Part shown: piece after piece, positions 14,453-19,393 of the stretch
How positions within the stretch are numbered: position 1 is the stretch's first letter
Layout of the letters: each line of letters begins with the position of its first letter
Assembly: GCA_035905735.1 (NCBI GenBank)
Contig: JAMIGL010000023.1
Coordinates: 1-28,293, forward strand
Reading direction: 5' to 3'
DNA length: 28,293 bases
DNA from: Minisyncoccota bacterium
Lineage (GTDB): Bacteria > Patescibacteriota > Minisyncoccia > Phycocordibacterales > UBA9973
Notes under the pieces: model-generated
What the model saw: only the letters and a program-made list of their open reading frames with translations
The model's database searches: none
Told to the model about the DNA's origin: nothing
Translations under genes and position numbers: made by a program

Positions 14453-16192
14453 ATGCAACACGACATTTCACATCTTCGCCACTCACTCGCCCACCTCCTT
14501 GGCGCGGCGACGCTCAAGCACTACCCGGATGCCAAGCTTACCCTCGGACCTGCGATTGACGACGGTTTCTACTACGATTTCAAATTCTCAGGCCCCGTTG
14601 GCGCAGACGAACTCGCAGCCATTGAGACAACCATGCGTGAGCTCCTCCCTACCTGGAAAACAGTGACCCACAAAGAAGTCTCGAAAGACGAAGCGCTTGC
14701 ATATTTCAAAGGAAATGAGTTCAAAGAAGAACTCATCAACGAGATTGCGGAACGTGGCGAAACGATAACCCTCTACACCATGGGCGACTTTACCGACCTG
14801 TGTCGCGGTGGACATGTCGATGACTTGAGCACTATTGATCCAGAAAGTTTCAAACTTGACCGTATCGCGGGAGCATACTGGCGAGGAAGTGAAAAAAACG
14901 CAATGCTTACCCGTATCTATGGCTTTGCATTCGAATCAAAAGACGCGCTTGCCGCATACCTTACGATGCGCACAGAAGCTGAAAAGCGCGACCATCGCAA
15001 GCTTGGGAAAGAAATGTCCCTCTTTGCATTTGATGAAGATGTCGGCGGTGGACTTCCACTTTGGCTTCCAAACGGTGCGGCAATGATTGAGGAGCTTGAG
15101 CGTCTCGCAAAAGAATCAGAGTTTGAACAAGAGTACGTCCGTGTACGCACTCCACACCTTGCAAAGGAATCCATGTATCTGACATCAGGACACCTCCCGT
15201 ACTACGAGGACTCAATGTACCCACCGATGGAATACGATGGCGGCAAGTACTACTTGAAGGCAATGAACTGCCCTCACCATCACAAGATCTTTGATGCAGA
15301 ACAGCGAAGCTATCGAGACCTCCCACTTCGCCTTGCAGAGTACGGTACGTGCTATCGTCATGAGAAAAGTGGTGAGCTGTTTGGTCTCATGCGCGTGCGC
15401 GCACTTCAGATGAACGATGCGCATATCTACTGTACCGAAGAGCAGTTTGCCGAAGAATTTGGCAAGGTGAACGACCTCTACCTTCGCTATTTCAAGATAT
15501 TTGGTATTGAAAAATACGTCATGCGACTGTCAAAACATGACCCGGCAAAGCTTGGCAAGAAATATGTTGACGAACCGGAACTTTGGAAAAAAACAGAGGC
15601 AATGGTCAGACAAACACTCGTTGATGCAAACATTCCATTTGTTGAAGTTGAAGACGAGGCTGCATTTTATGGACCAAAGATTGATGTGCAGGTATGGAGT
15701 GCTATCGGGCGTGAGTTTACACTCGCGACCAACCAGGTCGACTTTGCGGTACCGGCACGTTTTGGTCTCACCTATACCGACAACGAAGGCAACCAGCAGA
15801 CACCGCTGTGTATCCACCGCGCACCACTTGGTACCCATGAGCGTTTTATCGGATTTCTCACCGAACACTATGGCGGTGAATTCCCGACATGGCTCGCACC
15901 GCTTCAGGTTGCAATCATTCCCGTAAAGGACACTCATATAGCCGAAGCAACAAAGCTGCATCAGAAACTCCGATCTACCATGGTTCGAAGCGAGGTCTAT
16001 ACTGACAACAACAGTCTCGGCAAGCGTATTCACGCTGCAAAGACCATGCGTCCACCGTATGTGCTCGTACTCGGTGACAAAGAAATAGCATCCGGTACCT
16101 ACACACTCGAACTCCGAGATGGAAGCAAAATAGAAGTTGACCTTGATGCACTTCTTGAAAAGCTGCACAAAGAAATAAGCACAAGAGCATAA
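14453..16192 (+). CDS. thrS: Threonine-tRNA ligase lacking the N-terminal TGS domain
   Basis: Editing domain RHSLAH and DLCRGGH; catalytic MNCPHH, YRHE, MNDAH and IHRA; C-terminal anticodon-binding domain. Confidence 0.97.
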   Translation: MQHDISHLRHSLAHLLGAATLKHYPDAKLTLGPAIDDGFYYDFKFSGPVGADELAAIETTMRELLPTWKTVTHKEVSKDEALAYFKGNEFKEELINEIAERGETITLYTMGDFTDLCRGGHVDDLSTIDPESFKLDRIAGAYWRGSEKNAMLTRIYGFAFESKDALAAYLTMRTEAEKRDHRKLGKEMSLFAFDEDVGGGLPLWLPNGAAMIEELERLAKESEFEQEYVRVRTPHLAKESMYLTSGHLPYYEDSMYPPMEYDGGKYYLKAMNCPHHHKIFDAEQRSYRDLPLRLAEYGTCYRHEKSGELFGLMRVRALQMNDAHIYCTEEQFAEEFGKVNDLYLRYFKIFGIEKYVMRLSKHDPAKLGKKYVDEPELWKKTEAMVRQTLVDANIPFVEVEDEAAFYGPKIDVQVWSAIGREFTLATNQVDFAVPARFGLTYTDNEGNQQTPLCIHRAPLGTHERFIGFLTEHYGGEFPTWLAPLQVAIIPVKDTHIAEATKLHQKLRSTMVRSEVYTDNNSLGKRIHAAKTMRPPYVLVLGDKEIASGTYTLELRDGSKIEVDLDALLEKLHKEISTRA

Positions 16193-16194
16193 CT

Positions 16195-16221
16195 AAAAAA
16201 TCCCCTTCATGGGGATTTTTT
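16195..16221. terminator. Bidirectional terminator between the convergent thrS and capA genes
   Basis: AAAAAATCCCC-ttcat-GGGGATTTTTT. Confidence 0.85.
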
Positions 16222-17242
16222 ATTGGGAAAGCTTTTCAATCAATGATTTGCCCGCCCCCGAAGGATCGACTCTTGGCACACCAGATGGCGAGAGGACAAC
16301 CGAGTCAACAGTGTAGCTGACAGGTTGGTGGTCCGCATTAAATGCAACACTGACTATACCTGAAGTACCCAGAAGACCACGCGTTACAAGCCGTCCACCT
16401 CCGACAAAGTTGCCCATACTATAGGCAATAAGGCGATCTTTATACCATTCTACCTTGCGCAATACATGCGGCCCCGAACCAAGCACAAGATCAGCACCTG
16501 CATCAATCGCCGTGTATGCAAGAAGCTGTACGTTACCGCGGTTTTCACTTCCCATATACTCAGTCTCACCAGTCACCAGTGTCTTGTCAGCACCTTCTGC
16601 GCCCGCATGAAATACCACAACGACAATATCATTTGTTTCGCGAAGCTTGGTAACTTCACGCTTGATAAATCCATAATCAAGTATCGTGTTCCAAGGCTTC
16701 GTACTCGAGAGTCCGAGCACCCCAATACGAACACCATCGACCATCATGCTATGCGTCGCATTTGTACTAGCTACATATGGTATCCCAACACGCTCAAGCT
16801 CTGCTCGTGTGTCTCTGAGTCCTCCTTCACCAAAATCATACGCGTGGTTGTTTGCAAGGCTGACCATATCAAAACCAGCATCGGCAAGCGCATCGGCAAA
16901 TGACCCATCACCTGCAAATGCATGACACATACTGCTAACAAAATATTCGCACTTGGACACATGCCCATCAGTCGCAAACGTACCCTCAAGGTTACCAATC
17001 ATCAAGTCGGGCTTCTGAGTAAGCTCTCGTACTCCGGCAAAGACTTGCTGGTTGTACACTCTATCAGCGGGAACCATATCACCCACCCATCCGATCGTGA
17101 GCAGTCGGGGCGCTTCGGCGACAGGGCGACTCACCGAAAATGCCGAGAGAACAGGAAGCGGTACCGCATGAAGTGACAGTGCGGCAACACCATAGGCAAT
17201 ACTCGCAAAAAGTCCCGTTATCAAAATCAACCGAGGCTTCAT
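16220..17242 (-). CDS. CapA/PGA_cap family metallophosphoesterase-like membrane-anchored protein
   Basis: VGD, GNLEG, LANNHAYDFG, VFHAG, GSGPHV and YSMGNF motifs; N-terminal hydrophobic segment; ATGA overlap with the rnr stop. Confidence 0.85.
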   Translation of the reverse strand: MKPRLILITGLFASIAYGVAALSLHAVPLPVLSAFSVSRPVAEAPRLLTIGWVGDMVPADRVYNQQVFAGVRELTQKPDLMIGNLEGTFATDGHVSKCEYFVSSMCHAFAGDGSFADALADAGFDMVSLANNHAYDFGEGGLRDTRAELERVGIPYVASTNATHSMMVDGVRIGVLGLSSTKPWNTILDYGFIKREVTKLRETNDIVVVVFHAGAEGADKTLVTGETEYMGSENRGNVQLLAYTAIDAGADLVLGSGPHVLRKVEWYKDRLIAYSMGNFVGGGRLVTRGLLGTSGIVSVAFNADHQPVSYTVDSVVLSPSGVPRVDPSGAGKSLIEKLSQ

Positions 17243-19188
17243 ACCAATGCGTAGTCAATGAGTCGTCGATCGAGATCGGTCGACATCACTTTAAAGCGAA
17301 TACTATCTCCAATACGAAAACTCTTGCCTGTCCGACGACCAATAATCGCAAGCTCGCGGTCGTTGTACTCAAAGAAGTCATTGCCAAGATCGCGCATGCG
17401 AACCATACCTTCACATTTGGTTTCCTTGTCCTCAACAAAAATACCGTTTGGTGAAATACCGGTCACAACACCATCAAACACCTGTCCGATGCGATCACTC
17501 ATGTACTCAACCTGCTTGTATTTGATCGATGCACGCTCTGCATCCGCTGCTTCCTTTTCACGGGTCGATGAATGCAGACAAACCTTGTCATAGTACTCCC
17601 ACATTTCTTTGGGGATCTTGTGATGCTCGAGATATGCCTCAAGCAATCGATGTACGATAAGGTCAGGATATCGACGAATCGGGGACGTGAAATGTGTGTA
17701 GTACTTGAATGCGAGACCGTAGTGACCGATGTTTTTGGTCGAATAGATCGCCTTCATCATAGAGCGCACGATAGCGGTCTGAATGGTTTCTTTTTCAGGC
17801 TTGCCCTCGAGTGACTGGACGAGCTTGTTGAGCTCCTTTGACGGAATGACACCGTTTTCATCAACCTTTACGTTGTAGCCGACACGCTTGAGAAACATGT
17901 GCAGATCATCCATGCGATCAGCATCAGGCGCATCATGAATGCGGTAGACAAAGACCTCATCCGCATGACTCTCACGTGTCGCAATATGCTCAGCAACCTT
18001 TCGGTTTGCGAGCAACATCAACTCCTCAATCATGTGATGTGTCTCTCCGCGTGTTTTCTTGTAGACCCCGATTGGGTGACCAGTCTCATCGAGCTTGAAT
18101 TTCACTTCTTGGGTATCAAGTGAGATCGCACCGTTTTGGAAACGTTCTTGTTCTAAATATTTTGATACGGCAAGTGCTGCTTGGAGCTCCTTGAGATACG
18201 GACCGTTTTTGGTATCGAGCACCTGCTGTGCACTTTCGTAGCTGTAGCGCTGCTTGGAATGAATGACAGTCTTGCCAAACCATTCACTTACAATCTTCAT
18301 CTGTGGTGTGAAAATAAATACTGCAGAGAATGTGAGGCGATCAACGTTTGGATTCAAACTACAGAGATCGTTTGAAAGCGTCTCAGGAAGCATCGGGATC
18401 GTGCGATCCACGAGATAGACCGATGTAGCACGCTCTGCCGCCTCCACATCAATAGCATCCTTGGGACGAACATAGTGCGACACATCAGCGATATGAATAC
18501 CAATCTCCGTGTTGCCATCCGGAAGAAATGTCACCGAGATAGCGTCATCAAAGTCTTTTGCATCCTCAGGGTCGATAGTGAACACTACCTGATCTCGGAA
18601 GTCACGGCGACTCGCCTTGTCTGCATCAGGAATACCGCGAGCACTGATGGCTTCAGCCTCCTTCCACACGGCATCGGGGTATTTGTTGTCAAAGCCTTTC
18701 TCCAGTGCAAGCGAGAGCATCTCGGCATTGTTCTCAAACGGCTTGCCGAGTACACGAACAATCTCACCCACTGGTTCTTTCATCGGATCCTGCCAACCAG
18801 AAATGCGGCAAAACACTTTGTCACCCTGCTTTGCTTCACCCACCTTGTCTTCTGGAATAAAAATACTGGTATACATGCGACCATCACTTGTCGCAAGGCA
18901 GTGGTTGCCATTTTGGAATGTGAGCGTGCCGCTATAGCCGCTTTTTGCGCGACGGACGATATCTACAACCTTGCCGGTCGGATTCATATCGGAAAGTATC
19001 GTGACTATTTCTGCAGACACGACATCCCCATGAAATGCACGGTTGAGTGCTTCGCGAGGGATTTCGATGGTAACACCCAGATCACGGAGCTTCACATAGC
19101 CGATACCTTTTGGAGAAATATTGATGACACCTTCAAATTGCGCACCTCCTTTGAGTACCGAAAGATCTGGTTGTGGTTTGTTTTTCAT
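17239..19188 (-). CDS. rnr: Ribonuclease R (cold-shock domains, RNB domain, S1 domain)
   Basis: FTIDPEDAKDFDDA active site, IEELMLLAN, HFTSPIRRYPDLIVHR and a C-terminal S1 domain. Confidence 0.95.
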   Translation of the reverse strand: MKNKPQPDLSVLKGGAQFEGVINISPKGIGYVKLRDLGVTIEIPREALNRAFHGDVVSAEIVTILSDMNPTGKVVDIVRRAKSGYSGTLTFQNGNHCLATSDGRMYTSIFIPEDKVGEAKQGDKVFCRISGWQDPMKEPVGEIVRVLGKPFENNAEMLSLALEKGFDNKYPDAVWKEAEAISARGIPDADKASRRDFRDQVVFTIDPEDAKDFDDAISVTFLPDGNTEIGIHIADVSHYVRPKDAIDVEAAERATSVYLVDRTIPMLPETLSNDLCSLNPNVDRLTFSAVFIFTPQMKIVSEWFGKTVIHSKQRYSYESAQQVLDTKNGPYLKELQAALAVSKYLEQERFQNGAISLDTQEVKFKLDETGHPIGVYKKTRGETHHMIEELMLLANRKVAEHIATRESHADEVFVYRIHDAPDADRMDDLHMFLKRVGYNVKVDENGVIPSKELNKLVQSLEGKPEKETIQTAIVRSMMKAIYSTKNIGHYGLAFKYYTHFTSPIRRYPDLIVHRLLEAYLEHHKIPKEMWEYYDKVCLHSSTREKEAADAERASIKYKQVEYMSDRIGQVFDGVVTGISPNGIFVEDKETKCEGMVRMRDLGNDFFEYNDRELAIIGRRTGKSFRIGDSIRFKVMSTDLDRRLIDYALV

Positions 19189-19189
19189 G

Positions 19190-19262
19190 AGCCACCTCCG
19201 AGAATCGAACTCGGGACCTACGGTTTACGATACCGTTGCTCTACCAGATGAGCTAAGGTGGC
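19190..19262 (-). tRNA. tRNA-Thr(CGU), CCA not encoded
   Basis: Cloverleaf GCCACCU/AGGUGGC; D arm GCUC/GAGC; anticodon arm ACGGU-AUCGUAA-ACCGU; T arm CCGAG-UUCGAUU-CUCGG; discriminator U. Confidence 0.96.
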
Positions 19263-19290
19263 TGTTACTATGTGATATATACCAATTATA

Positions 19291-19328
19291 CCCTATCCAG
19301 CTCTCATCAATGCTACAGCTGGATAAGG
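19291..19328 (-). terminator. 12-bp hairpin after the giant surface-protein gene; TATAAT (19285-19290) of the tRNA promoter follows immediately
   Basis: CCUUAUCCAGCU/AGCUGGAUAGGG pairing; no clear U-tract. Confidence 0.45.
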
Positions 19329-19393
19329 TGGCTTTGTCACTACTGAATATGTGTATCCTACAGTATTTTAGGAGATTTTGAAATAGAGTTCAC

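Follow-up and report, generated by a model that had tools for sequence, protein, structure and literature searches.

A tRNA-Thr gene one base upstream of rnr and the probable release of an essentially leaderless mRNA by tRNA processing in a Minisyncoccota bacterium

In the genome of a Minisyncoccota bacterium, a threonine tRNA gene ends a single base before the start codon of rnr, the gene for ribonuclease R (RNase R). This raises the question of where the rnr mRNA begins and how ribosomes find its start. We addressed the question from the window, which is the whole stretch of 28,293 nucleotides (nt) of contig JAMIGL010000023.1 that was analysed, and from related genomes. All coordinates are those of the window; G000 denotes this genome, G031 its nearest relative, and other G and L numbers further genomes and loci. 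The source genome is a 387-kb metagenome-assembled genome from wastewater, 71% complete, of a Paceibacteria-type bacterium of the Candidate Phyla Radiation (CPR). We consider it probable, on comparative grounds, that 3′ processing of the tRNA yields an essentially leaderless mRNA carrying rnr and the downstream gene capA. The argument builds on direct observations of the junction's anatomy, the alternation of promoter and tRNA in front of the same genes, the purifying selection on rnr and the inventory of nucleases.

Anatomy and age of the tRNA–rnr junction

The tRNA gene and the genes that follow it are arranged as listed here.

19190..19262, minus strand: tRNA-Thr(CGU) gene, with G1 at 19262, U73 at 19190 and CCA unencoded (ARAGORN; Rfam RF00005, 65 bits; sequence reading)
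19189..19189, minus strand: C74, the sole base separating the discriminator from the start codon (sequence)
19186..19188, minus strand: ATG start codon of rnr (sole in-frame start upstream of the CSD1 domain; N-terminal homology with relatives)
17239..19188, minus strand: rnr, encoding RNase R, 649 amino acids (aa), CSD1-CSD2-RNB-S1 (TIGR02063; Pfam RNB, CSD2, OB_RNB, S1)
16220..17242, minus strand: capA-like (PGA_cap) gene, overlapping the rnr stop by ATGA at 17239-17242

ARAGORN assigned the tRNA the anticodon CGT, the Rfam score far exceeded the gathering threshold of 29 (E = 3e-12), and the acceptor stem reads GCCACCU/AGGUGGC. The protein matched the RNase R equivalog model TIGR02063 with 672.2 bits (cut-off 597.85); it has no N-terminal helix-turn-helix, and profile positions 1–67 are unmatched. 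An earlier note on this DNA had reported that the tRNA stops one base short of rnr on the minus strand, and these searches agree with it. The bases 3′ of U73 are C-A-U-G, hence the tRNA has no encoded CCA, and the single intervening base falls within the zero to few bases between tRNA and coding sequence that characterize mitochondrial-type punctuation. Between tRNA-Thr and rnr there is no room for a promoter, a terminator or a ribosome-binding site, as the sequence and a promoter scan both bear out, and we infer from this lack of space that tRNA and rnr are cotranscribed. C74 itself probably either stays on the tRNA or becomes a 1-nt leader. The coupling of capA to rnr through the ATGA overlap, also described earlier, is present as stated.

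The assignment of the rnr start is firm. A stop codon within the tRNA, 12 codons before the ATG, ends the frame upstream, no other in-frame ATG, GTG or TTG occurs between that stop and codon 32, which already lies within CSD1, and the N-terminal motif ..PDL..GAQFEG aligns with the N-termini of relatives. A true start farther downstream, which the earlier note had named as one finding that would undo its proposal, is thus not what we found. A CATG directly after the discriminator is not rare in this clade, since C74-A75 is near-universal; that the ATG at this position is the conserved start of a 649-aa gene is, on this comparison, not chance.

The same junction occurs in G031, and the stretch is also present in many independent metagenome runs. 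One 150-nt contig from a set of four wastewater runs labelled 'RNA-Seq cDNA', rated as probably DNA, crosses the junction by just 15 nt. Between G000 and G031 the tRNA is identical at 72 of 74 bases (its orthologues across the genus range from 77 to 97% identity), RNase R is 96% identical in amino acids, and rnr differs at 15% of bases. The dN/dS ratio of rnr is 0.023 at a dS of 1.14, and the junction GGCUC|AUG is unaltered. With synonymous divergence above 1, these values show that the arrangement is old and that rnr is under strong purifying selection, and they rule out both a silenced gene and an assembly accident.

Promoter or tRNA in front of rnr and other genes

We compared 30 rnr loci of the same genus, G000 and G031 included. 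All 28 loci that lack the tRNA carry an extended −10 box, TGnTAnnnT, upstream of the rnr ATG, and the distance from box end to ATG is 6 nt in 18 loci, 9 nt in 8, and 10 nt and 11 nt in one each. Neither G000 nor G031 has a TAnnnT box in the 22 nt before the rnr ATG, so that the −10 box about 6–7 nt before the start that marks promoter-driven leaderless genes is missing at rnr in both. Judged by promoter geometry, rnr is leaderless or near-leaderless in the genus: with the box 6–11 nt before the ATG, an mRNA starting at the AUG or one base before it would be the form that is normally translated. In G000 and G031, the tRNA stands in the position of this leaderless promoter.

The translation machinery of the clade is consistent with such messages. 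The 3′ end of the 16S rRNA reads ..GGAUUAACUCAAAU in place of ..GGAUCACCUCCUUA, so that the CCUCC of the anti-Shine-Dalgarno sequence is missing, and Shine-Dalgarno (SD)-like words showed no enrichment upstream of genes in this genome. Counted from the first base of the box, TAnnnT boxes are instead most frequent at −12 relative to the start codon, which is the geometry of leaderless transcription, and in G000 together with the near-complete G016, a −10 box ends 5–8 nt before the first ATG in 32% of long open reading frames (ORFs). Absence of the anti-SD motif has been described for a subgroup of Parcubacteria (PMC9297842); that study is silent on leaderless mRNAs and tRNA junctions. A U at −1 was considered as a mark of leadered starts and dropped, because in a crude test on 571 ORFs, it was non-discriminating: T stood at −1 in 52% of the starts that lack a −10 box and in 47% of those that have it.

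Junctions of the same kind were found at other genes. In other species, tRNA-Thr(CGU) lies elsewhere, mostly upstream of prfB, the gene for release factor 2 (RF2). It abuts prfB as C-ATG in G014, G030 and G019, and as CCA-T-ATG in G022, and prfB has its own TGgTACAGT box 7–10 nt before the ATG in G062, G001, G018 and G031. The prfB context was taken from G031, since prfB lies outside the assembled 71% of G000. As a side observation, RF2 (L079, L178-L181) is encoded by a single uninterrupted ORF of about 289 aa and is N-terminally short; its TIGR00020 match begins at profile position 111 and reaches 347 bits, below the cut-off of 370.

G000 itself contains a second case, tRNA-Leu(CAG)-C-ATG-miaA. 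A search of 51 genus genomes with a strict pattern (T-arm, 12 bases, CATG) gave 35 matches against 3 for a reversed control. Reading of 30 matched loci identified 27 real tRNA ends, 17 of which open ORFs of at least 90 aa, where about 0.4 would be expected by chance. Genes at the junctions, checked with Pfam and NCBIfam, encode full-length MiaA, RF2, RsmI, TrhO, a pseudouridine synthase, a HAD hydrolase and an EamA transporter. G016, which is 98% complete in two contigs, has three junctions among 38 tRNAs.

The alternation is clearest at miaA. A tRNA-Leu ends 0–7 nt before the miaA ATG in 18 of 30 genus loci; the remaining 12 are tRNA-free for 38 nt, and most of these have TGnTAnnnT-N6-ATG. 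No intermediate tRNA–miaA spacing occurs among the 30. Outside the genus, a tRNA-Leu lies within 10 nt of miaA in 5 of 20 other families of the order. That one and the same gene alternates between a promoter at −7 and a tRNA at −1 is the strongest argument that tRNA excision supplies a 5′ end that is otherwise made by a promoter. At the tRNA-Leu(CAG)/miaA locus of G003 (L151), we also noted that an encoded CCA shares its A with the miaA start (..GGGCA-CC-ATG); tRNA and mRNA cannot both retain that base.

These comparisons indicate that the tRNA junction is a clade-wide expression architecture and not a regulatory link specific to rnr. The earlier proposal that the layout makes RNase R supply depend on tRNA processing therefore finds no support as an adaptation particular to rnr: only 2 of the 30 genus rnr loci have the junction, and the same tRNA abuts prfB elsewhere. 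The tRNA–rnr spacing, whose variability among relatives had been named as evidence against the mechanism, is unchanged in G031 and does vary across the genus, formally the adverse outcome, yet this does not refute the mechanism.

Sequences upstream of the tRNA and enzymes for its 3′ end

Upstream of the tRNA are two candidate promoter elements and an insertion.

19355..19360, minus strand: TAGGAT, putative ancestral −10 box of the tRNA-Thr promoter (assigned from sequence alone)
19285..19290, minus strand: TATAAT, possible second −10 box, 22 nt 5′ of the tRNA and within the insertion (inferred from sequence)
19263..19332, minus strand: 70-nt insertion or duplication directly 5′ of the tRNA, missing in G031 (alignment with G031)

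TAGGAT has a TTCAAA 16 nt upstream of it (19382-19377) and is kept upstream of tRNA-Thr(CGU) in many genus members, with G031 reading TTGAAA-17-TAGGAT. TATAAT was not picked up by a two-hexamer promoter scan. The insertion consists of 61 new bases (19323-19263) and a repeat of the nine bases with which the tRNA begins, GCCACCTTA (19332-19324), and holds a 9-bp hairpin in which 19325-19317 pairs with 19302-19294. We rejected the idea that it is a repeated miniature inverted-repeat transposable element, as no further copy turned up in the genome or the fetched loci. The regions upstream of tRNA-Thr are wholly different between G000 and G031, and tRNA-Thr(CGU) looks like a rearrangement or integration hot spot. 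In G016 (L038) and G006 (L054), an intact tRNA-Thr(CGU) is followed after about 20 nt by incomplete duplicates of its 3′ half, which resemble remnants of att sites.

Further along, rnr is followed by capA in 25 of the 30 genus loci. The gene for threonyl-tRNA synthetase (14453-16192, plus strand) is convergent with the tRNA-Thr–rnr–capA unit, and G031 has the same neighbour. No second RNase R-like match was found in the 61 genomes searched, G000 and G031 among them, save an uncalled 75-nt match in a G058 contig.

If the tRNA is excised from a joint transcript, a nuclease must separate it from rnr, and the earlier note had assigned this role to an RNase Z-type enzyme. That part of the proposal finds no support in the genomes: no match to TIGR02651 rose above the cut-off in 121 genomes of the order, nor in six genus genomes, and a check for rnz accordingly came back empty. 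The check for cca was positive; a CCA-adding enzyme is present, as are RNase Y, RNase J and RNase III. RNase E/G was not found, and RNase PH and PNPase domains were not found in five genomes searched, four of them 98–99% complete. RNase R is the sole recognisable (processive) 3′–5′ exonuclease. Mitochondrial-type excision uses RNase P at the 5′ end and RNase Z at the 3′ end; here the RNase P RNA lies within the window (Rfam), and the second enzyme is the one not detected.

The 3′ ends of the tRNA genes follow a rule of their own. In G000 and G016, position 74 is C in 65 of 65 tRNA genes and position 75 is A in 45 of 65, and the full CCA is encoded in only about a fifth. The RNase Z of Bacillus subtilis prefers U-rich trailers. 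Most tRNA genes here share the unencoded CCA of that pathway; its RNase Z gene was not found, and the invariant C74 is unlike its U-rich trailers. Recognition by RNase P is a possible role of C74, and C74 may serve it here; the rule may equally reflect a nuclease determinant or partial CCA repair.

The enzyme responsible would be an endonuclease other than canonical RNase Z, for which we can name only candidates. One is a 455-aa MBL/beta-CASP/RMMBL protein resembling aCPSF1, encoded at L033:690-2057 (minus strand) in G031 and by a partial copy on contig C43 of G000. The proteins that it most resembles are archaeal aCPSF1 (without KH domains) and the Cas14 of type VII CRISPR, and within the order it is conserved, at 46–61% identity, in 51 of the 59 genomes that are near-complete. 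Archaeal aCPSF1 cleaves C|A in single-stranded CA (PMC3553952), a specificity that would suit the C74-A75 rule. As the determinant of C74, we rejected the protein, because presence of C74 does not track it: of three genomes in which it was not detected, G043 alone lost the rule, and G037 and G084 each keep C74 in 33 of 33 tRNAs, while in G108, where the protein is present, 36 of 37 tRNAs have C74. We keep it as one weakly supported candidate for the 3′ nuclease beside RNase Y and RNase J.

Proposed route, rival explanations and known systems

In the route that we propose, tRNA-Thr(CGU), rnr and capA would be transcribed as one RNA from the tRNA promoter, and RNase P would trim the 5′ side of the tRNA. 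On the 3′ side, an endonuclease distinct from RNase Z would then cut behind the discriminator or, as we deem likelier, behind the universally encoded C74; in the latter case, N73-C|AUG junctions give exactly leaderless mRNA. The cut would free a 5′-monophosphate rnr-capA mRNA starting with AUG or C-AUG, and the CCA-adding enzyme would complete the tRNA. The freed mRNA would be translated by the leaderless route, which appears normal for rnr in a genus with ribosomes lacking the anti-SD, and capA through termination–reinitiation at ATGA. The earlier suggestion that tRNA 3′ maturation makes an essentially leaderless C-AUG rnr-capA mRNA thus gains support from comparison, in that 28 of 28 relatives appear leaderless by promoter geometry and the junction recurs at other genes; its RNase Z does not.

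Several points weigh against this route. That tRNA and rnr share a transcript, that it is cut and where, and that the message is translated without a leader are all deduced from DNA comparison. The tRNA stands before rnr only in G000 and G031. The order has no detected RNase Z, and if the tRNA 3′ end were made by exonucleases, the message would be degraded and not released. The missing intermediate spacers could be due in part to the deletion bias of streamlined genomes and not to a need for a 5′-proximal AUG. Finally, an in silico fold of the precursor (19139-19262, minus strand; minimum free energy −37.6 kcal/mol) pairs the 5′ acceptor strand of the tRNA with GGAGGUG in rnr codons 13–16 and not with the 3′ strand of the acceptor stem; this pairing is probably accidental, because the stretch is not kept in G031.

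We weighed three other explanations. In one, the cotranscript is never cut endonucleolytically; rnr and capA are translated from an intact tRNA–mRNA chimera by SD-independent internal initiation, and RNase R then digests the message from its 3′ end as far as the acceptor stem, freeing the tRNA, so that the mRNA comes first and the tRNA later. The nuclease inventory fits this well, as RNase Z, RNase E/G, RNase PH and PNPase were not found, which leaves RNase R as the one processive 3′ exonuclease that can be recognised, and the ribosomes of the clade do not use SD pairing anyway. RNase R of Mycoplasma genitalium matures tRNA 3′ ends in one step (PMC12320835, PMC4014445). The chimera would, however, place a stable acceptor stem immediately 5′ of the AUG, in the mRNA channel footprint of the ribosome, and would make tRNA supply depend on mRNA decay. 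The rnr AUG lies at or within about 5 nt of the predicted transcript 5′ end in 28 of 28 relatives, which points to 5′-end-dependent initiation, and junction spacings are either 0–7 nt or promoter-sized, with nothing between. We regard the chimera as fairly unlikely.

It is very improbable, in our view, that the abutment has no consequence for expression because rnr has its own promoter inside the tRNA gene or a true start downstream. The D-arm sequence TGGTAGAGC does resemble an extended −10 box and is near the genus consensus TGnTAnAGT, and an SD-like AAAGGAGGT lies at codons 13–15. We rejected both. The D-arm box ends in C where all 28 rnr promoters of relatives have T, its transcript would begin within the tRNA, some 50 nt before the AUG, and the promoter scan finds none there; AAAGGAGGT reads AAAGGCGGC in G031, where it is therefore not conserved, the 16S rRNA has no anti-SD to pair with it, and the next in-frame start is codon 32, within CSD1. 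Still less credible is that rearrangement at a tRNA hot spot left the junction behind as a by-product, neutral or slightly deleterious, with rnr poorly or not expressed in the lineage. The dissimilar upstream regions of G000 and G031, the 70-nt insertion and the partial tRNA copies in G016 and G006 speak for such rearrangement. Against it, rnr has remained under the constraint measured above, with the junction unaltered since the lineages split, no other RNase R-like match turned up in G000 or G031, and the same type of junction is retained at miaA in the genus and beyond.

Release of the rnr-capA mRNA by tRNA 3′ processing is thus the explanation that we favour. A bolder version is that tRNA punctuation of the mitochondrial kind regularly takes the role of promoters in this order of SD-less CPR bacteria, with a cut after C74 by an enzyme other than RNase Z, and that in the present lineage RNase R, as the only 3′ exonuclease and the probable tRNA 3′ trimmer, acts on the precursor of its own mRNA in an autoregulatory loop; this we consider unlikely. 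If tRNA excision does operate at these genes, a free-living or episymbiotic bacterial lineage without SD pairing would set the ribosome start in two interchangeable ways, by a promoter 6 nt before the ATG or by an excised tRNA that exposes the ATG, and a route thought peculiar to mitochondria would also be bacterial. Sister species with either state at the same gene would then constitute a natural experiment. For enzymology, this poses the question of which nuclease forms the 3′ ends of tRNAs in an order where RNase Z, RNase E, RNase PH and PNPase were not found. For annotation, such starts in CPR genomes may be misplaced by gene callers that look for a ribosome-binding site or for some spacing behind a tRNA. 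The literature searched gave no account of bacterial leaderless genes abutted by a tRNA.

The nearest precedents lie in several known systems. In the Ojala–Montoya–Attardi model, tRNAs punctuate the transcripts of animal mitochondria. Such punctuation is described in PMC12242768 and cited in PMC4633059. As in mitochondria, tRNA genes here directly flank coding sequence; there, excision from a polycistronic precursor sets the mRNA 5′ end, and the mRNAs are leaderless and translated without SD. Unlike mitochondria, this is a bacterium with ordinary promoters, which uses few of its roughly 40 tRNAs per genome in this way (2–3 in the two genomes counted); the same gene has a −10 box 6 nt before its ATG in sister species, and RNase Z, the mitochondrial 3′ enzyme, was not found. 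In the tRNA-tufB operon of Escherichia coli, tRNA and protein gene share one transcript, and the leader that follows the tRNA carries an SD. In the archaeon Thermococcus kodakarensis, a tRNA-Lys lies within the 5′ untranslated region of the TK0306 mRNA (PMC4247193). Both of these mRNAs retain a leader after the tRNA, whereas here only 0–7 nt are left.

With regard to the tRNA 3′ end, the likeness to M. genitalium is a reduced genome with RNase R as sole 3′ exonuclease (Alluri and Li 2012, as cited in PMC12320835 and PMC4014445). Mollicute tRNA genes, however, all encode CCA (PMC4014445), whereas most here do not, and exonucleolytic trimming cannot free a downstream mRNA. Propionibacterium acnes also has no RNase Z homologue, and endonucleolytic cuts mapped there by RNA sequencing fall directly behind C74 and so separate the two Cs of CCA, with repair by nucleotidyltransferase presumed (PMC3848588). 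The cut proposed here is deduced from DNA, and P. acnes has no reported link to downstream leaderless mRNAs (PMC3848588). The rnr state of the 28 relatives corresponds to the leaderless mRNAs of Actinobacteria and Deinococcus, which have the AUG at the RNA 5′ end, no SD and a −10 box about 6–7 nt upstream (PMC3898074, PMC4633059, PMC4007540). The difference in the window is that the 5′ end of the rnr mRNA would be processed, and so carry a 5′-monophosphate, and not initiated with a 5′-triphosphate as in those systems.

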